DNA of 13,063 bases from a virus (IMGVR_UViG_3300021399_000141), one strand, 5' to 3'; numbered from the stretch's first letter, positions 1-13,063 are shown. A program made the numbers and translations. Notes: generated by a model from the letters alone, not told the origin.

Positions 1-1247
1 GCATATCGTTTGAACTCGTTAGAGTCGTGGAAAATCTGACATTCTTGAACAGCAGTATCCAACTGAACAAGCACCAGGGTCTCGGGTTTGAGCTGTAGTG
101 CTATGTTATAAACCTCTCCAAGCATATATCGGAGCATGTCGTCAGAGATGGATCCTGAGCTATCGATGAAGATGGTCATGTAGTCTACTGCGTCGAACTT
201 ATCGAAGTCTGCCATAGCTATACGAGCGCGACCATTAGGATCTCGTTGGGTAGCGAGTATGTTTTTGTTGGCGAACGCACGACGTCGATCCTGGGTATTC
301 AGAGCCCGACCTATGATCTTACGAAAGGCTTTTTTCCAATCGGTGTTTGTCTTCCAGAGATCGAGGATCTTACTGTAGAACTTTCCGCGGGCTCCGTGCG
401 CGTCGGTACGATTATCTTTTTGTGCCTGATTGATAGCAATGCGTTTCCATTCATTGGAGTTAGCATCGTCTGTCGGACCTTTATCGTAACCTTCTTTTTC
501 TGCAAGTTCATTACCCTCACGTGCATCCATGAATCCACCTGGTGTCTCAGGCATGTTGCTTCCGTATTGTCCAGCACAGTCTTCAGGTTTGACTTGTCCT
601 TCGTTCTTGTTAGGATCTGCTTGTGATTGACCTTTTTGACCTTCTTGAGATTGACCTTTTTGACTGTTATTGTTGTTGCCTGTTGAATTTCCTTTAGGAT
701 TATCGTCGTAGATACGCTCGTATGCCCATCCTGAATACTTGGCGTCAATGAGACCTCTAATCTTGTGAATGGTGGCAGCACTAAACAGACCCAGATCGAC
801 CAGTGTTTGGTTTACCTCGTAGTCCGCAGCGATGTTACTACGTTCAGAATCATGACCAGCTTGACGCCCCCTACGCATATGATCCAGCACACAGTGCATA
901 CATTCATGCGCCATGACAAATACTTTCTCTTCGAAAGTCAGATCGTTAGTAAATTGCGGATTGACAAACAGATGGAAACCGTCTGTTGCTTGTGTTTTGA
1001 TATGGAACGTATATACTGTTTGAAGTCTGTTTGCAAAAGCTGCGAACATAGGTTCCAAATGTATGAGTGCTGCTTTGGCTTTGGCCTGTTCTTGAAGGAG
1101 TTTGGCCATGTCGATACGAGTACCATCCAAGCAGACTATAGTATCATAGTCCTCCCAGCGTTTACCCTTATTATCGCGTTCCATGGTCTGACGTTCAGAT
1201 CCAGAAACGTATTTTTGACCGCCTGCTTCTTCAAATATATTTCTCAT
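1..1247 (-). CDS. Zincin-like metallopeptidase (DUF2201_N-type) fused to vWA-like (DUF2201-type) domain; 3' end runs off the window
   Basis: Manually translated, not in the ORF track. Open from ATG 1247 (MRNIFEEAGG) to the window edge, 415 codons with no stop. HExxH motif FVMAHECMHCVLDHMRR at 908-894, then NIAADYEVN, a Q/G/N-rich linker, and MIDAS motif IFIDSSGS (DSSGS 164-150). ATGA overlap with the upstream stop. Confidence 0.9.
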   Translation of the reverse strand, partial: MRNIFEEAGGQKYVSGSERQTMERDNKGKRWEDYDTIVCLDGTRIDMAKLLQEQAKAKAALIHLEPMFAAFANRLQTVYTFHIKTQATDGFHLFVNPQFTNDLTFEEKVFVMAHECMHCVLDHMRRGRQAGHDSERSNIAADYEVNQTLVDLGLFSAATIHKIRGLIDAKYSGWAYERIYDDNPKGNSTGNNNNSQKGQSQEGQKGQSQADPNKNEGQVKPEDCAGQYGSNMPETPGGFMDAREGNELAEKEGYDKGPTDDANSNEWKRIAINQAQKDNRTDAHGARGKFYSKILDLWKTNTDWKKAFRKIIGRALNTQDRRRAFANKNILATQRDPNGRARIAMADFDKFDAVDYMTIFIDSSGSISDDMLRYMLGEVYNIALQLKPETLVLVQLDTAVQECQIFHDSNEFKRY

Positions 1248-3843: not shown

Positions 3844-3852
3844 TTATTATTT
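3844..3852 (+). promoter_or_regulatory. Candidate phage promoter element TTATTATTT upstream of MoxR
   Basis: 20 nt before ATG 3873. The same core and spacing recur at other transcription-unit starts. Confidence 0.45.
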
Positions 3853-3872
3853 AGGAAATACATGTATTGATA

Positions 3873-5744
3873 ATGAGAAATATTCAAGAAAGTTTTGTGG
3901 GTGTTCAACCTCTTACGGATTATCTCCAATCAGAGTTGGACAATCACGTAGACGAAGGTCTTCGTGACGCCATTGATAGAGTCAAAGATAAGCTCGGTAA
4001 ACTGGCTAGACAGGTGGTAGCCTGGGGAAAAGGTATCGTAGCCAAACTACAGACCTGGTGGATGGTCACAGATGAAGAGGGTAACATCCTACCATGTTCT
4101 ACCCCGATGACCGCAGGACAGGCTTACAATGATGGTCTGATCAATAAGAAGTCCACGTTCGTCAGTCTAGGTAAGACCTCGGGTAAGTTAGTAGGTCGTA
4201 CAGAAGCCTTTACAGGTGCGCTCAAGATGTATCCGTCAACACTCGAATGGTGGAAGTGGCTATCCAAACGCGCTGTTCGCGAGTCTAATGAAGAGGAGTT
4301 CAAATCTCAGTTCCAACAGATCGATGAGGTGCAGATGGCAAATACCGATCCACAAGCCAAGTACAATGTGATCACTACCAACGAGAAACTTCGTCAGGTG
4401 ATCAAGAAACACGTAACCAGTCCGCGTACTGCTCGTCTGATGATCTGGGGTGCTCCCGGTATAGGAAAGACTGCGATCCTTAATGCTGTTGTATCAGAGA
4501 TATCCGCAGAGCAAGGTAAAGACTACGCGCTCATCTCCAAAACTCTTTCTAACGAGACTCCTGAAAACTTCATGCTGCCAAAATACACAGAGTCAGGTGA
4601 TCGAGCAGAGGATGTTCCAAAGACCTGGTTGCCTGTATGGCGCCCTACTGGTGATGCCAAACTGGATGCAGAACTCGATGCTAAATGTGGACGTGGTATG
4701 TTATTCATCGATGAGTTGTCTCGCGCTACACAACAGGTACTTAACGTGATCCTACCGCTGATCAACGAAGCTACTTTCAACGGATGGAAACTAGGATCTG
4801 GTTGGGCTATCGTATGTGCATCTAACCGGGACGAGGATGAGGATCGTGGTGGTCAGTCATCAATTGGTAATGCATTAGGTAACCGTTTCGCGCAAGTCTA
4901 TTACGAACCAACGGCCAAGACCTGGCGTGCCTGGGCCGACAAGCAAGGCTTCATGTCACCACTCCTTACTCAATGGTTGGATATGCCTGCTGGTGAAACA
5001 CTGGCTGGTGGTAAGTTCTTCTACTGGGACCCGAATGGAGATGATACGGCTGGCTCTGACATGACTCACATCATGTGCACCCCTCGTTCCTGGACTAACG
5101 CCATGATCGATCTCGCTGAGATGCACAACACCGGCTCGCTGGAAGGATTTAACATATTTGATCTAGACGCCGAAGATATCCTCTTCACCCTCAACAAATA
5201 CGTACCAGCTGCGGCAGTAGATGCCTTCTGGGCTTTCCTCCAGACTATTCGCAAGATCGGTAACTTCGATGCTGCTGTTCAGTCTGCTTGGCAAAATAGT
5301 GGAGCGGGACTCAAGATCGACGCTAAGGATCTGGTACACGTAGCTCTACCATTAGCACAGCTCGTAGTAACAGCGCACAAAGACAAACTGCCTACTCAAG
5401 AAGAGTTCGAGTCCTTGGCCAACTGGTTGGTAAAAGCCAACAACGAGCAACTCGCATCGTACGTACTCGATGTATTCAAGAATGTGTTCGCAGCAGACGT
5501 AGCTGACAGTGATACATCGCTTGGTCTGAATGACTTGAAGTCCTATATCTTCTTCCTCAAAAAGATGAACGATCGCAAACCGGAGATCTGGGGTAACATC
5601 CATGCCTTCGATGCCTTCATGAACGCCTGGAAAGTAGATCGCACTACCATGCCTGACTACAGCACTGGTATGTCTATTATCGCCAAGAAATATGGTGAAG
5701 CCTTCAAGACTGCATCCGTTGATGGGAAAGATGGGTTAGGATAA
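3873..5744 (+). CDS. MoxR-family (AAA_5-type) AAA+ ATPase with ~150-aa N-terminal extension, 623 aa
   Basis: Walker A GAPGIGKT (4449-4472), Walker B MLFIDE (4698-4715), sensor-1 IVCASNR, Arg finger ALGNRF and CTPRSW. Start ATG 3873 (MRNIQES). Confidence 0.88.
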   Translation: MRNIQESFVGVQPLTDYLQSELDNHVDEGLRDAIDRVKDKLGKLARQVVAWGKGIVAKLQTWWMVTDEEGNILPCSTPMTAGQAYNDGLINKKSTFVSLGKTSGKLVGRTEAFTGALKMYPSTLEWWKWLSKRAVRESNEEEFKSQFQQIDEVQMANTDPQAKYNVITTNEKLRQVIKKHVTSPRTARLMIWGAPGIGKTAILNAVVSEISAEQGKDYALISKTLSNETPENFMLPKYTESGDRAEDVPKTWLPVWRPTGDAKLDAELDAKCGRGMLFIDELSRATQQVLNVILPLINEATFNGWKLGSGWAIVCASNRDEDEDRGGQSSIGNALGNRFAQVYYEPTAKTWRAWADKQGFMSPLLTQWLDMPAGETLAGGKFFYWDPNGDDTAGSDMTHIMCTPRSWTNAMIDLAEMHNTGSLEGFNIFDLDAEDILFTLNKYVPAAAVDAFWAFLQTIRKIGNFDAAVQSAWQNSGAGLKIDAKDLVHVALPLAQLVVTAHKDKLPTQEEFESLANWLVKANNEQLASYVLDVFKNVFAADVADSDTSLGLNDLKSYIFFLKKMNDRKPEIWGNIHAFDAFMNAWKVDRTTMPDYSTGMSIIAKKYGEAFKTASVDGKDGLG

Positions 5745-6547: not shown

Positions 6548-6694
6548 ATGGCAAATTTAACCATACGAAAGGGTACTGAAGCTGAATGGGAACGCTCGGT
6601 TCAAAACCCTGATGATATTGTATTTCTTACTGATAAACCACTGATCAAAACTCAGGGGCAGACTTATGGTGCTCCTCTCTGGGAGGGTGAATAA
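6548..6694 (+). CDS. 48-aa protein consisting only of the N-terminal module shared with the three downstream fibre genes
   Basis: Manually translated: MANLTIRKGTEAEWERSVQNPDDIVFLTDKPLIKTQGQTYGAPLWEGE*. IVFLTD...GQTYG aligns without gaps to IYFTTD...GEIYG. Stop is 11 nt before the next ATG. Confidence 0.75.
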   Translation: MANLTIRKGTEAEWERSVQNPDDIVFLTDKPLIKTQGQTYGAPLWEGE

Positions 6695-6705
6695 AATTAT
6701 GTTTT

Positions 6706-8058
6706 ATGGCAACCCAAGTAAAATTTAATAGACTACATACACTAGCAGAAGCTCAGCTTTCAACAGCGGATCAGAACACTATATACTTCACTACCGACAC
6801 ACATGAAGTGGTGATGAAAGGTGAGATATATGGTGCAAACTACATCTTGCCGGTCGCTTCTACAACAGATCTGGGAGGTGTCAAACTAGGTAGTGATACT
6901 GTACAAATGGTTGCTGCAAACACTCCTACTTCAGTAGCAGACAGGACATATGCGGTCCAAGTCAATTCATCAGGACAGATGGCTGTTAACATACCTTGGA
7001 CGAACTCATTACCGGTATGGGAGAACGAAATCAATAATAATGAGATTTGGTACACCAGTTCAGATGGAAATATTGTAACACCATATCAAACAAGTTCATT
7101 ACCAAAAATCGATACTAATACATATAGCGATGGTAAGGGTGTAATTAAATTCAAAGCAGATGTTACAAGTATAGGAAAATATGCCTTCTATAATTGTACC
7201 AGTTTGACCTCTGTAACAATTCCTGATAGTACCGCAAGCATTGGGGAGAATGCTTTCGCTCTTTGCAAAGGGTTAACCTCTGTAACAATTCCTGATAGTG
7301 TCATAAACATTGGAATGAGGGCTTTTTTCTATTGCAGTGAGTTGATCTCCATGACAATACCTAGTGGTGTCACACGCATTGAACAAGGTACTTTTATGGG
7401 CTGTACTGGTTTGACTTCAATGACAATAGGTAATAATGTCACAAACATTGGAATGAATGCTTTTACCGATTGTACTGGTTTGACTTCAATGACAATAGGT
7501 AATAGTGTCACAAGCATTGAAAAGAATGCTTTTAGCGATTGTACTGGTTTGACCTCTGTGGCGATAGGTAATAGTGTCGCAACTATTGGAGAGAATGCTT
7601 TTTATGATTGCACCAGTTTGGAATCTGTGACGATTCCTGATAGTGTTACAAACATTGGATCCTACGCTTTCCGTGGTTGTGCTGGTTTGAAATCTGTAAT
7701 AATTGGTAACGGTGTAACAGATATTGGCAATAGTGCTTTTAGCGGTTGTACAGGTTTGACATCTGTGACAATAGGCAATAGCGTCACAAGCATTGGTGAG
7801 AGTGCTTTTTATGGTTGTACAGGTTTGACATCTGTGACGATTCCTGATAGTGTCACAAGCATTGAACACCTCGCTTTCTGGGATTGTACCGGTTTGACCT
7901 CTGTGACATGCGAAGCGACAACACCGCCAACAATTGATTCATTCACATGGTATAATGTAACTAAGTCTATTCCCGTATATGTACCAGCAGATTCGGTTTC
8001 ATTATATCAGCAAGCACAGTATTGGTCTCAATTTACAAACATACAAGCAATTCAATAA
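6706..8058 (+). CDS. BspA/TpLRR (LRR_5) protein with fibre-type N-terminus, 11 LRRs; putative receptor-binding/adhesin protein
   Basis: 152-aa N-region containing the fibre motif LPVASTTDLGGVKLG and N-cap [10 protein letters not shown]...GKGVIKF, then 11 x 23-aa [23 protein letters not shown] repeats and C-cap TPPT...[19 protein letters not shown]. Confidence 0.88.
   Translation: MATQVKFNRLHTLAEAQLSTADQNTIYFTTDTHEVVMKGEIYGANYILPVASTTDLGGVKLGSDTVQMVAANTPTSVADRTYAVQVNSSGQMAVNIPWTNSLPVWENEINNNEIWYTSSDGNIVTPYQTSSLPKIDTNTYSDGKGVIKFKADVTSIGKYAFYNCTSLTSVTIPDSTASIGENAFALCKGLTSVTIPDSVINIGMRAFFYCSELISMTIPSGVTRIEQGTFMGCTGLTSMTIGNNVTNIGMNAFTDCTGLTSMTIGNSVTSIEKNAFSDCTGLTSVAIGNSVATIGENAFYDCTSLESVTIPDSVTNIGSYAFRGCAGLKSVIIGNGVTDIGNSAFSGCTGLTSVTIGNSVTSIGESAFYGCTGLTSVTIPDSVTSIEHLAFWDCTGLTSVTCEATTPPTIDSFTWYNVTKSIPVYVPADSVSLYQQAQYWSQFTNIQAIQ
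7162..7920 (+). repeat. Array of 11 x 69-nt LRR-coding repeats
   Basis: Exact 69-nt period. Identical blocks include 34 nt at 7402 and 7471, and 26 nt at 7744 and 7813. Confidence 0.92.
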
Positions 8059-8070
8059 AACAATATACAT

Positions 8071-8940
8071 ATGCCAACCCAAGTAAAATTCGATAGACTA
8101 CATACGTTGGCTCAGGCCCAGCTTTCAACAGCTGACCAGAACACTATATACTTCACTACCGATACTCACGAAGTGGTGATGAAAGGTGAGATATATGGTA
8201 CAAACTACTCTTTACCGGCGGCTACATCTTCAGTTTTAGGGGGTGTCAAACTAGGTAGTGATATTATTCAAACTGCTGAGGTGAACGAGGTAACATCCGT
8301 AGCTGACCGAACATATGCGGTCCAAGTCAATTCATCAGGACAGATGGTAATCAACGCGCCTTGGGAGGACTCATTACCTGTATGGGAGAATGAAATCAAT
8401 GATAATGAAATTTGGTACACCAGTTCAGATGGAAATATTGTGACACCTTATCAAGCAAGTTCATTACCAGAAATTGACACTAATACATATGGGGATGGTA
8501 AAGGTGTAATTAAATTTAAAACAGATGTCACAAGCATTGGGATACAAGCTTTCTATCGTCGTACTGGTTTGACTTCAGTAACAATCCCTAACAGTGTCAC
8601 AAGCATTGGACAAGAGGCTTTCTATGGTTGCACCAATTTGACCTCTGTGACGATTGGCAATAACGTCACGAGCATTGGACAACAAGCTTTCTATCGTTGC
8701 ACAGGTTTGGCATCTATAACAATTCCCAATAGCGTCACAAGCATTGGATATCAGACTTTCTATGGTTGCACCAATTTGACATCTATAACATGTGAAGCGA
8801 CAACACCCCCAACAGTTCAATCAAGTACATGGATTAGTGTAACTAAGTCTATCCCAGTATATGTACCAGCAGATTCAGTTTCATTATATCAGCAAGCACA
8901 GTATTGGAATGAATTTACAAACATACAACCAATCCCTTAA
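8071..8940 (+). CDS. BspA/TpLRR (LRR_5) protein, tandem paralogue with 4 LRRs
   Basis: Same 152-aa N-region and 45-aa C-cap as 6706..8058, with 4 x 23-aa repeats. Confidence 0.88.
8527..8802 (+). repeat. Array of 4 x 69-nt LRR repeats organised as 2 x 138 nt
   Basis: caagctttctatcgt at 8545 and 8683, and ctttctatggttgcaccaatttgac at 8618 and 8756; both pairs are 138 nt apart. Confidence 0.9.
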
Positions 8941-8968
8941 ACACACATAACGTTATAAACAGAACATC

Positions 8969-9000
8969 AAACAGGTGAGACTTCAGGTCCCACCTGTTTT
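8969..9000 (+). terminator. Hairpin/probable terminator between the LRR genes and the collagen-like gene
   Basis: aaacaggtgagac-ttcag-gtcccacctgttt (13 bp, one A-C mismatch), followed by a short T/AT tract. Confidence 0.6.
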
Positions 9001-9007
9001 ATTATAT
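8999..9007 (+). promoter_or_regulatory. Candidate promoter element TTATTATAT upstream of the collagen-like gene
   Basis: 20 nt before ATG 9028, directly after the hairpin. Confidence 0.45.
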
Positions 9008-9027
9008 ATTCAATATAACAGTTATAT

Positions 9028-11367
9028 ATGGCACTCAATGTAAAATTCGATAAATCTCGCAACTACGCTTATGCTATGGGCGATAGTGCAGAGTGTGGTA
9101 CTATATACTTTACTACAGATACTAATCAGATCATCGTTAACAAAAAAGTATACGGTGATGGTGAAGCTGGTCCTCAAGGTGTAGGACTTGAATTCAATTG
9201 GAGTGGGACAACCCTCGGTGTCAAACGTGAGGATGAATCGGAATATGAATATAGGGACTTGCAAGGTCCTCAGGGCGAACAAGGTCCTCAAGGTGATGCC
9301 GGTCCTCAAGGAACACAGGGCGAACAAGGTCCTCAAGGCGAACAAGGACCTCAGGGTGAACAAGGACCTCAGGGTAAACAAGGACCTCAAGGTGCCCCTG
9401 GTGCTCCTGGTATAGGTTTTATACCATGCTCTTGGTCCACATATGATCTGATAATGAGCAGCATTGTTTTACCTTTAGATGCGTCTGAAGGTGAGACCAC
9501 TGTCAATTTTGCTGTAAAGTATCCGGAGTTCTTGAGCAATGGTGGCGGTGCAAGTAGTGGATATAGTTTTATAGGTTATATAAACAATATTTACAATTGG
9601 TCCTCTCATAATTCAGATATAGTCGTATGGGAACAGTATTTTTATTACCTACAAAATGAAACGTTTGCACCAAATCCTTATCAAGAAGAAGGCGCGCACG
9701 ATGAAATCAGGGACGCTATGACTCGTGCTGCAGAAATATTTTACTCAGAATTCAATGCTATACCTGTCACCCCTTGGGGAGATTTTCCTGCATACGATGC
9801 AGAACCAGGATACTTCTGGTGGGGTGGAAACATGTTTGGTCGCGCCGGTCAAAATGGTGAGCAAGGAGAGACTGGTGCAACTGGTGTAGGTATATCGAGC
9901 ATATCTAAAACAGGTACATCTGGGCTTGTTGATACATATACTATAACATATACAGATGGTAGCACTTCTACATTTGAGGTAACCAATGGTGAGGATGGTG
10001 GTGGATATACAGCTGGAGATAATATCAGTATTGATTCCAATCTTAAGATTTCTGCAGAGCTTCCTAAAGAACAACATAAACTTATTTATTATGACCCATC
10101 TTTGGTAGGAAATCCATATAATGGATTGGTTGGTCAACAGCTGATGTACGAAGAAGGTATCATTGTAGATAATCCTGCGGATTTAGCAAGTTGTAAGTCT
10201 GATAATGATTTTACAATTCAGGAGATAGGGACTTCATGGCCTACAGAACTTATCTCTAACAACAAATATCTTAATTGGGGACATACAGAAATAAACGCAA
10301 ATGCTCTTCTTCCTGGAGGTATAACTTCTACAGATAATGGTTTTTGGTATTATAATCAAAATGATCATACAGTAGACGCCAAATTTAACGATGATTACTT
10401 TTCTCGAAGAGCTTGTTTATATAATCCTAATACTCCGTCCAATGTATTTCATGACGCTCTTTATGGATATTTTAATAGTTCATATCCTAATGATACTATA
10501 GGATGTGGTTTTATTGGTTTTGGAACTACCCCTACAACCGATTCTGATGGTACATGGTGCCCTACTGTAATACTTTCAGTAGATGCAGGTCCTGAATTAA
10601 AAGATAGAAGGTTTAGAGCGTTAAATATATATTTAGACGTTAAAAAACGTAAAGCAGACCCTTCTACTGATATTAGAGAAAAGTACTATCCTGTAACAGA
10701 GGCCACTGACACTACTCCACCTCAAGGAATAGCAACGGTTGGTAGTTTTGGAATTGTTGGGTGGCCTGATAGTACTCTGGTCAGCGGTTCAACAGTTGAA
10801 CAAGGAAAGTATGTGGTGCACAGTACTGATTTGATAACCAATCCATGGACAAGTGATTATTATGGGCCATCATATATTCGTATTAGAACTGAGAAGGTAG
10901 GAAATATAATTACCTGGAGATTTTCACAGATTCTTGTAGGAGGAATTACAGATTTGGCTAATCAAATTCCAGATTTGATAGATGGTGTCAAAGTACAACT
11001 AGACCTCGATAACTACAAGGTAAGAGTAAGATACCTTAACCAAGGTGTGTCTACCTGGGCAGAGTTTGATTGCAGCTCTTATTCCACATACCTAGATGTA
11101 CTCAAGAATGATGCTCACTTTATGCTACAGCAAAGTTCAACTGAACGTGGACGTATTTATAATATATCCTCTCTGAGACATAGAACAATTCTTGATATCA
11201 GTACTGATTTGGTATGGCAGAAAAGCGGCGATGATTGGTCTGTAGCAGCGGGTATTGCACCTCTTGACTTGTTTACAGGTTCCCATCTTAACTTTAATGA
11301 AGTGACCAAAAAACTGTGGTATTCTAACGGTAATCGTATCTATCAGATAGGTGGTTCATTCATTTAA
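9028..11367 (+). CDS. Collagen-like tail fibre/appendage protein, 779 aa
   Basis: Shared N-module ([19 protein letters not shown]), [17 protein letters not shown] motif, Gly-X-Y run, a second short GXY run followed by GISSISKT...[20 protein letters not shown], a YTAGDNISI hinge, and a ~430-aa beta-rich C-terminal domain of unknown identity. Confidence 0.8.
9265..9417 (+). repeat. Collagen triple-helix repeat, 17 Gly-X-Y triplets (mostly GPQ/GEQ)
   Basis: [51 protein letters not shown], with a 9/18-nt DNA period. Confidence 0.92.
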
Positions 11368-12042: not shown

Positions 12043-12510
12043 TTAGAGAACGATCAATAAAATCACACCAACTACTACTAATACGGATATCAGTCCGACC
12101 ATCCACTTGGTCCATTTGAATAGGTCGATGTACGGAATAGGATACATTACGAATAGGTAGTTATCGTAGTCGTCCAATCGTTCTATTTTATATGTCAACA
12201 GATCGAACAGATTGTTGGCTCGGATGAACCCTCGCGCGGCATTAAGACGCTCCATGATGAACTTTTCTACCGCCTGGTCAGTAGGATTGTCATTACCCAA
12301 TTCATACACCGTGGACGTCGGGTCGTATTTTCCTTCCACTACATGTGGGTTGATAATGGTGTATACTCGCCCGATCCAATCTTGTTTCAGTTCGACTCCG
12401 AACATCTTTGAAAGACCTTGTAGGATACCTTCTTCTTGATATACTTTTTGGAGGATTCTATTGTACCGAATAGACAGTATCAGATACTTGATGAAATTGT
12501 ATATTATCAT
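12043..12510 (-). CDS. Hypothetical membrane protein with C-terminal TM helix (155 aa)
   Basis: Start taken as ATG 12510 (MIIYNFIK) because the track's 12642 start overlaps the opposite-strand gene. C-terminus WMVGLISVLVVVGVILLIVL. Confidence 0.75.
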   Translation of the reverse strand: MIIYNFIKYLILSIRYNRILQKVYQEEGILQGLSKMFGVELKQDWIGRVYTIINPHVVEGKYDPTSTVYELGNDNPTDQAVEKFIMERLNAARGFIRANNLFDLLTYKIERLDDYDNYLFVMYPIPYIDLFKWTKWMVGLISVLVVVGVILLIVL

Positions 12511-12542: not shown

Positions 12543-12558
12543 TTATTATTGATAATAA
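12543..12558. promoter_or_regulatory. Overlapping divergent TTATTAT elements (near-palindrome TTATTATTGATAATAA)
   Basis: Plus copy 12543-12551 is 20 nt before the sigma ATG 12572; minus copy 12558-12550 precedes ATG 12510. Confidence 0.45.
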
Positions 12559-12571
12559 TATATTGTATTCG

Positions 12572-13063
12572 ATGAAAAATTTTAGCCAGATAGTAATTGA
12601 TGAAGCAAAATTGCATGAAGCACACGCTGATGCAACAGCCATGTTACAGTCTGAAATAACCGACTATATTCGTAAGGTCAACAGAGTCATGCCTCAGAAT
12701 ATCAAGGATATCGCAGCCATTTCTCAACGTCTGAACCTTACTTCTGCCGATCAATTGGACAAAATACGTACTGCGAACAAGAGTCAGTTTGCTAAGGTTG
12801 CCAAAGAACTGAGTATCTCTGATGCTCAGGTTTCTGAGTTGCATGAGCTACTCAAGAAAGCCGGTAAAAGCATCCGTATGCTTCCTCAGTATCAAACAGA
12901 TAAAGAACGAGCAGAAATATTGGCAGGTCAGGCATCTCTCAGCGATATGACCATTGACTTGGAGACACCGGCTGGTCGTAACGCTGCTGTAAAGATGTAC
13001 ATGCCAATCGTTTATAAGATCGCAGATCAATATGTAGGTAAGAGTCGTCTAGATAGTCCATCC
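12572..13063 (+). CDS. Probable RNA polymerase sigma-70-family factor with N-terminal extension; 3' end runs off the window
   Basis: Manually translated, not in the track: 164 open codons, MKNFSQIVIDEAKLHEAH...GRNAAVKMYMPIVYKIADQYVGKSRLDSPS. The last ~30 aa match sigma region 2.1 (R-x-x-h-h-x-x-Y-h-P-h-V-x-x-I-A-x-x-Y-x-G). Regions 2.2-4 lie outside the window. Confidence 0.6.
   Translation, partial: MKNFSQIVIDEAKLHEAHADATAMLQSEITDYIRKVNRVMPQNIKDIAAISQRLNLTSADQLDKIRTANKSQFAKVAKELSISDAQVSELHELLKKAGKSIRMLPQYQTDKERAEILAGQASLSDMTIDLETPAGRNAAVKMYMPIVYKIADQYVGKSRLDSPS

Follow-up and report, generated by a model that had tools for sequence, protein, structure and literature searches.

A phage sigma-70-family factor that begins with a candidate capsid-targeting leader

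The viral DNA stretch IMGVR_UViG_3300021399_000141 (13,063 nucleotides, called the window throughout) ends inside a gene for a sigma-70-family transcription factor, whose first residues resemble the capsid-targeting sequence (CTS) found on the internal head proteins of phage T4. The genome that stands in for that of the window is G001 (IMGVR_UViG_3300021255_002784 in IMG/VR), which is complete, 197,528 bp long and bounded by terminal repeats; outside the fibre genes the two are 88-91% identical. Relatives were taken from IMG/VR loci, among them G002 (158.6 kb), G006 (IMGVR_UViG_3300028832_000094, 239.8 kb) and G004, six being used for promoter context. The protein set of G001 is a crude gene call of 215 predicted proteins. 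The sigma locus in the window holds the following features, all on the plus strand:

12543..12549: TTATTAT element, 29 nucleotides (nt) before the sigma ATG, read as a putative promoter element of the late or structural class
12572..13063: gene start, encoding residues 1-164 of about 466 of a predicted long-form phage factor of the sigma-70 family and truncated at the end of the window
12572..12604 (residues 1-11): leader MKNFSQIVIDE, a candidate capsid-targeting propeptide ending in I-x-E
12605..12619 (residues 12-16): AKLHE, whose L-x-E, with Ala next, may be another protease site
12647..12952 (residues 26-127): predicted N-terminal helical domain specific to the long-form sigma
12932..13063 (residues 121-164): beginning of sigma regions 1.2 and 2, broken off within region 2.1-2.2 by the end of the window

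The sigma gene and its product

From the ATG at 12572 the frame stays open to the window end at 13063, giving 164 residues with the N-terminus MKNFSQIVIDEAKLHEAH. A longer start is available at the TTG at 12461, but all 88 homologues begin instead at the MKNF methionine, so that the start MKNFSQIVIDE given in a preliminary description of the locus is confirmed. The full-length homologue (L001:10001-11398), which is encoded in G001, has 466 residues and is 96% identical over the part present in the window. Pfam and PHROGs searches with the 164-residue fragment alone returned nothing useful. In the full-length homologue, Pfam Sigma70_r2 matches residues 140-204 with 32.1 bits (cut-off 24), and NCBIfam TIGR02937 matches residues 136-329, covering regions 2 and 4 (profile positions 3-162 of 165), with 51.1 bits (cut-off 42.9).

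Structure-based comparisons gave the same family. A search of the PDB with the profile of the 88 homologues retrieved FliA, SigA and RpoS chains, and the AlphaFold model, with a mean predicted local distance difference test score (pLDDT) of 78, matched sigmaA chains in Foldseek with probability 1.0. By VIA, model residues 121-210 align with RpoS regions 1.2 and 2 (Z 13.9, root-mean-square deviation 1.9 A, 88 residues) and model residues 120-346 with residues 111-613 of sigma70, the Z values against sigma70 and sigmaS being 12-14. Region 4 lies beyond the window end and is present in the full-length homologue, both by TIGR02937 and by structural alignments that run to model residue 343-346; a T4 gp55-type late sigma, which has region 2 only, was rejected on this ground. 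Two expectations of the preliminary description were thus borne out, namely that about 130 residues precede region 2 (Sigma70_r2 starts at residue 140, leaving some 130-140 residues ahead of it) and that the complete gene encodes a sigma factor with regions 2 and 4. Profiles and predicted structure together identify the open reading frame (ORF) of the window as the beginning of a long-form sigma-70-family factor in which a leader of about 11-16 residues and an extra N-terminal domain precede regions 1.2, 2 and 4, and an extra C-terminal domain follows. The remaining parts of the full-length model are laid out as follows:

residues 1-21: lone low-confidence helix
residues 133-207: region 2
residues 209-256: disordered acidic linker
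residues 260-330: region 4
residues 332-461: extra C-terminal domain, predicted with confidence

Two models give the N-terminal helical domain (residues 26-127) a pLDDT of about 80-95; all homologues conserve this domain, and a 211-residue paralogue encoded elsewhere in the genome lacks it. Foldseek gave no fold match for this domain at E<=0.001, and a wide VIA comparison gave a best Z of 3.8, which is no evidence of a new fold. A profile search of the full library, with 50% clustering, provided a wider set of about 100 representative long-form homologues, which come in a form of 450-490 residues and a form of about 390 residues; in the shorter tier the C-terminal domain is missing, and the leader and the N-terminal domain are kept. 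Two long-form homologues, P0134 (747 residues) and P0152 (752 residues), carry about 290 extra C-terminal residues. Searches of cultured phages by megablast, and by tblastn with the 164- and 466-residue queries, gave no sigma match.

The leader and the T4-type head genes

In phage T4 the prohead protease gp21 removes the CTS of the internal proteins IPI-III as well as the propeptides of Alt, gp24 and gp23. The CTS, which reads MKTYQEFIAE (10.1101/2021.01.19.427310), is borne by all T4 internal head proteins and is removed by gp21 (PMC5694885). Residues 4 and 7 of the CTS bear on targeting, residues 8 and 10 on cleavage; with Asp at position 10 the leader still targets but is no longer cut, and proteins fused to the CTS are packaged and then delivered into the host (PMC9026906). 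The leaders described here are built alike, with M-K at the start of 10-16 residues, an aromatic or aliphatic residue at positions 4 and 7-8, and Glu near position 10 followed by Ser or Ala. The sigma protein does have both of the (I/L)-x-E sites proposed for it earlier, with I-D-E at residue 11 and L-H-E at 16.

The leader of the sigma factor is well kept. Among the 88 close homologues Met1 is invariant (88/88), Phe4 and a Ser or Thr at position 5 are each found in 87/88, positions 7-8 are hydrophobic, and Glu10 occurs in 77/88; a Glu stands at one of positions 9-11 in 87/88, and the residue after it is Ser, Ala or Val. The positions kept best are 4, 7, 8 and 10, the same ones that bear on targeting and cleavage of the T4 CTS. 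Two independent models predict residues 1-20 as a helix, with pLDDT below 50, that stands apart from the domain after it without packing on it.

Similar leaders occur on many otherwise unrelated proteins of the phage. The consensus M-[K]-[STN]-L-x-[EQD]-x-[IL]-x-E-[SAN] is matched by 27 of the 215 N-termini of G001, against 5 of 1146 internal Met positions, several of which look like true starts. Once the leader is removed, the 28 proteins (the sigma factor included) fall into 27 clusters (blastp 1e-3); with a single similar pair left, paralogy was rejected as the cause of the family. Selection acts on the leader peptide, because Leu4 is written with five different codons. The varied codons of Leu4, and of Ser3, for which both codon families are used, likewise led us to reject a cause at the nucleotide level such as a recombination cassette or a translation signal. 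The leader is an added module: in G002 the RNA-ligase-like orthologue lacks it and begins at the conserved core, and orthologues of the nucleoside diphosphate kinase (NDK) have 13-20 extra N-terminal residues ahead of the normal NDK start. Besides the NDK, the proteins that bear it in G001 include a MATCAP-like peptidase, an RNA-ligase-like protein, a DUF5591 protein and many small ORFs, and many of the G001 leaders have Asp at position 10. Immediately upstream of its prohead protease region, G001 has nine leader genes one after another. The members of the leader family nearest to the window, at G001 26371 and 26778, are just past its left end. The gene adjoining the sigma gene in G001 starts M-Q-N-I-T-N-F-L-Y-E-N-L-N-E-A.

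The same kind of leader family is found in G002, in G006 and in Sphingobacterium phage PAU, and the sigma factor can be compared with it directly. A hidden Markov model (HMM) of 119 leaders from four genomes, with all sigmas excluded, scores the window sigma at 8.7 bits and the true T4 CTS at 11.4 bits. In the 100 representatives of the wider set, position 4 is Phe in 50, Leu in 26 and Ile in 13, and hydrophobic-x-E stands at the cut position in 83. The leader profile score exceeds the 99th percentile of the background in 47 of these 100, against 1 of 21 short paralogues, the family-wide median for the long-form sigma being 6-8 bits, and many of the wider homologues match the genome-wide leader consensus exactly (for example M-K-N-L-S-N-I-L-T-E and M-K-K-L-S-Q-L-I-N-E-A). 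In G006 the sigma factor and an unrelated protein of 219 residues are identical at 9 of their first 11 residues and otherwise dissimilar. Conservation of the leader, on which the preliminary description had made its idea depend, was therefore found in all 88 close homologues as well as in the roughly 100 representative long-form ones.

The GenBank record of PAU (JQ362498) gives five proteins the note 'internal capsid protein', and four of the five (gp142, gp154, gp199 and gp270) start M-K-[STG]-[LI]-x-x-L-Y-E-[AN]-(K-L-N-E-A). The PAU 'scaffolding' protein gp152 and its neighbour gp153 have the same leader, and the propeptide of the PAU capsid protein contains A-K-L-N-E-S. The AKLHE of the window sigma resembles the E-A-K-L-N-E-A end of these PAU leaders; we count it as weak evidence because it is not conserved among the sigma homologues, whose alignment has a gap there. 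The capsid proteins of G001 and PAU are 34.5% identical and belong to one clade. Subject to a caveat on their origin given below, the PAU labels are the one support of experimental appearance for the view that the leader is a capsid-targeting propeptide, which we regard as quite probable for the leader family as a whole.

The head genes, which we read in G001 outside the window, are of T4 type. The capsid protein belongs to the Gp23 family (PF07068, 1e-24), and a 475-residue protein has an N-terminal Peptidase_S77 domain of the gp21 type (34.2-35.7 bits), so that a gp21-like protease and the same kind of hydrophobic-x-Glu site in the capsid protein, both anticipated in the preliminary description, are present. 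The nearest cultured relatives of the capsid protein come from Tenacibaculum phages pT24, PTm1 and PTm5, PAU (named as a 'Sphingomonas' phage), Chryseobacterium phage MA9V and the Prevotella Lak phages, that is, from phages of Bacteroidota (PMC3738902). At about residues 10-17 the capsid N-termini of this clade have a conserved W-[SG]-x-x-[IL]-x-E in common, the next residue being Ser, Ala or Glu, and further hydrophobic-x-E sites lie ahead of their conserved core. The G001 capsid propeptide, K-W-x-x-hydrophobic-hydrophobic-x-E, is of the gp23 type, T4 gp23 having K-W-K-P-L-L-E at the corresponding place and T4 gp24 a 10-residue leader that ends in L-R-E-S. The heptad aromatic-[ST]-x-hydrophobic-hydrophobic-x-E is rare (two or three copies per proteome) and always marks the propeptide of the capsid protein, where it takes the form aromatic-S-x-I-I-x-E; it is found at residue 4 in 73 of the 88 sigma homologues. 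The G001 protease has L-V-Y-E at residue 9, where T4 gp21 has L-I-E-9 (PMC9026906).

Three minor observations concern leader-like N-termini. A DUF5856 protein encoded two to three genes downstream from that of the sigma factor (G001 13590-14291, minus strand) has the leader-like M-K-S-L-T-E-F-L-Y-E-S-L-E-K at residue 131, in the middle of the ORF, which points to an internal start or to the fusion of two genes. Another such mid-ORF motif lies at residue 68 of G001 167701-168240. About ten small proteins of G006 (for example at 2586, 4888, 6647, 159375 and 234871) share a different N-terminus, M-S-I-F-S-x-N-I-T.

Promoter classes, the short sigma and a possible route of delivery

The TTATTAT element ahead of the sigma gene belongs to a frequent class. 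The window holds 11 copies where 3.5 are expected, a number reached in none of 200 shuffles. Copies at 3844, 6487/6520, 8999, 12013 and 12543 lie about 20-30 nt ahead of the genes for an AAA ATPase, a tube-like protein, a collagen-like fibre, a 188-residue protein (minus strand) and the sigma factor; the fibre gene at 9028 has its element at 29 nt, the same spacing as the sigma gene. In G001, TTATTAT occurs within 100 nt upstream of 39 genes (7.6 expected), including those for the capsid protein, protease, sheath, fibres and tube. It precedes the sigma gene in G001, G002, G004 and G006 and not in two other relatives (4/6).

A second element, TTATATA, is found upstream of 47 genes of G001 (9.2 expected), which are replication and small early-type genes. 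In fourteen of these cases the element is preceded, at 22 nt, by an A[CT]TAAA box that frequently occupies a hairpin loop, an arrangement that amounts to a bipartite, sigma-70-like layout. The cassette itself, a putative early-type promoter (G001 46219, 49017, 113963 and 155745, plus strand, among others), consists of a conserved CA[CT]TAAAG, often in the loop of a hairpin with variable stem, then a run of T and, 22 nt from the box on its downstream side, TTATATAT; its 14 copies lie on one strand throughout, one of them would drive the gene for a short sigma, and it recalls the promoter-stem-loop cassettes of T4-type phages. Upstream of G001 genes the host-type Bacteroidota -7 element TAnnTTTG shows no excess (10 observed, 9.7 expected), and no third promoter class was found in that genome.

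The short sigma is the 211-residue paralogue mentioned above. Its gene lies on the plus strand of G001 at 155787-156422, behind a TTATATA-type promoter, with orthologues at G002 103967 and G006 221143. The protein is 29% identical to residues 135-344 of the long sigma and comprises regions 2 and 4 only, without leader and without the extra domains. Genes that bear a leader fall into TTATTAT units by 18 to 3, and the other genes by 79 to 96 (Fisher p=4e-4). In five of six relatives a small leader-bearing gene follows 6-20 nt after the sigma gene, and the order of sigma, small leader-bearing protein and third gene, together with both sigma factors, is conserved in G001, G002 and G006.

These observations lead us to consider that the long sigma may be packed into the capsid and delivered with the DNA, an idea to which we give nearly, if not quite, an even chance. 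The proposal amounts to the CTS and gp21 system of T4 acting on a new cargo. The sigma gene would be transcribed late, with the head and tail genes, from its TTATTAT-type promoter; the short amphipathic leader would bind the scaffolding core of the T4-type prohead and the protein would thereby be enclosed; the S77 (gp21-type) prohead protease would cut the leader after I-D-E11 or L-H-E16; and the mature sigma would stay in the head and be ejected with the DNA. It would then bind the host core RNA polymerase and direct it to the non-host-like early promoters (A[CT]TAAA, 16 nt, TTATATA). Binding to the prohead core, cleavage, packaging and ejection are all steps that we infer. Should the sigma indeed be packaged, it would quite probably act early in the next infection.

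One of the early promoters would drive the short sigma, which in turn would switch on the TTATTAT class. A sigma read only from its own promoter class needs some bootstrap, and no third class was found. The two sigmas, the two non-host promoter classes and the cross-wise placement of the genes would together form a loop that could be started only if the long sigma arrives with the DNA. More tentatively, and with appreciable doubt, we suggest a closed two-sigma circuit that uses no host sigma at any stage, in which the injected long sigma serves the early promoters, these yield the short sigma, and the short sigma serves the TTATTAT genes for structural proteins and for the long sigma itself. 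Which sigma would read which promoter class is deduced here from the placement of motifs and genes.

Alternatives, known systems and neighbouring genes

Several points weigh against the packaging of the long sigma. All of the support for it is evidence from sequence, and the phage is uncultured. The 'internal capsid protein' labels of PAU are notes made by the depositors of the record, and a profile search found no sigma orthologue in the cultured relatives PAU, PTm1, pT24, MA9V-2 and LR756500. Promoter classes and timing are putative assignments drawn from motifs and gene functions only. The NDK and other enzymes are among the leader cargo, and a need for them inside the capsid is not obvious. 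(I/L)-x-E is a common tripeptide, with seven copies in the sigma protein, and the window clade has a one-residue insertion before the Glu (I-V-I-D-E), which puts the Glu at residue 11. On a matrix of the G001 leaders, the sigma leader of the window scores 5.6 bits where core members score 24-34, and on an HMM of the G001 and PAU leaders it scores 4.3 bits where core members score 17-25, mainly because it has Phe and not Leu at position 4. Its 8.7 bits on the four-genome profile are a moderate match, equalled by 17 of 4278 internal-Met windows (0.4%).

Non-membership, the first reading of the low scores, was overturned by the occurrence of Phe4 in true leaders, by the four-genome profile and by the Leu or Ile at position 4 of wider homologues; Phe4 is found in orthologues of core leader proteins elsewhere, such as the RNA-ligase-like protein of G006 and the MATCAP-like protein of G002. 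The leader of the window clade is an atypical variant, with one inserted residue and a second site, L-H-E-A, like the end of the PAU leaders. Probably, though not certainly, the sigma leader is a member of the shared family, and it seems reasonably likely to be a working member of a capsid-targeting family. The original idea that the leader loads the sigma factor into the head is supported in part, by the leader family, the T4-type head genes and conservation, and weakened by the moderate profile match.

The conserved N-terminal helix could also serve the sigma factor itself. The protein would then be an ordinary intracellular sigma, for example a late or very late activator of its own TTATTAT class, with a helix that acts as a region-1.1-like autoinhibitory or partner-binding element and that resembles the leaders in so far as both are short amphipathic helices. 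We give this explanation a substantial chance, well short of half. Phage sigma cascades are well known, and a sigma gene placed behind its own class of promoter would be consistent with positive autoregulation, yet transcription from that class alone meets the bootstrap problem, with no third class at hand. The first 130 residues are conserved as a unit, whereas residues 1-20 are unpacked against the N-terminal domain in both models. The moderate profile score, the commonness of (I/L)-x-E and the Phe4 of the window clade, where the core leaders of the genome have Leu, all agree with a helix that belongs to the sigma factor; it is less easily reconciled with the fact that the most conserved positions, 4, 7, 8 and 10, are the key positions of the T4 CTS, that wider homologues with Leu or Ile at position 4 merge into the genome-wide consensus, and that the unrelated G006 protein has nearly the same 11 residues.

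Alternatively, the leader may be a true shared tag with another outcome, such as a propeptide whose protease-dependent removal times activation in the cell, co-assembly at the site of head formation, or packaging with no role after ejection. We think this rather improbable. The enzymes that bear the leader (NDK, RNA-ligase-like protein and MATCAP-like peptidase), with their unclear role in a capsid, speak for it, and Asp10, present in many G001 leaders, permits targeting without cleavage in T4 (PMC9026906). On the other hand, PAU leader proteins are labelled as internal capsid proteins, cargo bearing the T4 CTS is ejected and active in the infected cell (PMC9026906), and the two sigmas, the two non-host promoter classes and their cross-wise placement fit delivery. 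Mere chance resemblance of the N-terminus to the T4 CTS, with no special role, is very unlikely: short motifs do arise by chance, as the equal scores of 0.4% of internal-Met windows remind us, but here specific positions are conserved in 88 close and about 100 distant homologues, and the leader is absent from the short paralogues.

If the long sigma is packaged, it has parallels in several known systems. The phages known to begin transcription independently of host specificity factors, such as N4 and phiKZ, inject a whole RNA polymerase. The virion RNA polymerases of N4 and of phiKZ/SPN3US are made late, packed into the head and injected to read non-host early promoters (PMC4496689, PMC7598289, PMC5694885). 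Where these phages deliver whole polymerases, the present one would deliver only the specificity subunit for the host core enzyme. T4 gp55 and SPO1 gp28 and gp34 are likewise of the sigma family and redirect the host core polymerase to phage promoters, in their case inside the cell; the 211-residue paralogue looks like such an intracellular phage sigma. To our knowledge, none of gp55, gp28 and gp34 has been reported in virions. Region 4 is missing from T4 gp55, which recognises a solitary -10 element (PMC9026906). The long sigma differs from it in having regions 1.2, 2 and 4, two extra domains and the leader.

The T4 system itself differs from the present one in its cargo, which here is a sigma factor, and in its extent, a handful of proteins in T4 against a family of about 27 unrelated proteins in a single genome here, known so far from sequence alone. 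We know of no sigma factor among the cargo of the T4 CTS. PAU has a capsid protein of the same clade and the same leader, and differs in having no sigma orthologue. In the literature searched, whose coverage of journals is incomplete, we found no report of a virion-packaged sigma factor.

The packaging idea is specific and would apply widely in a large phage radiation. If true, an injected sigma would be a cheaper, third route, bringing in no more than the subunit that guides the host enzyme to its start sites, and it would explain how the Bacteroidota phages abundant in gut and rumen can use early promoters so unlike those of the host. A delivered specificity subunit would then replace a delivered polymerase throughout a large radiation of such phages. 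Capsid targeting of the T4 kind, a laboratory tool for loading foreign proteins, would also turn out to be applied in nature to many more and more diverse proteins, regulators and nucleotide enzymes among them.

The window carries further genes to the left of the sigma gene, including a RuvC-like gene, a tail-tube-like gene and the following:

3-1247, minus strand: vWA/DUF2201 putative metallopeptidase, in the structural region
3867-5744, plus strand: MoxR-type AAA ATPase, preceded by TTATTAT
6706-8058 and 8071-8940: BspA-type leucine-rich-repeat fibre genes
9028-11367: collagen-like fibre gene

The genes for the vWA/DUF2201 putative metallopeptidase and the MoxR-type AAA ATPase lie close together in the structural region. 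A gene of about 120 residues (12043-12402, minus strand), whose product has a C-terminal transmembrane helix, is divergent from the sigma gene and is conserved in G001; the crude gene call does not include it. The stretch from 6670 to 10143, which comprises the two BspA-type fibre genes and the first part of the collagen-like one, has no nucleotide match in G001, although its flanks are 86-91% identical, and it looks like a swapped host-recognition cassette.

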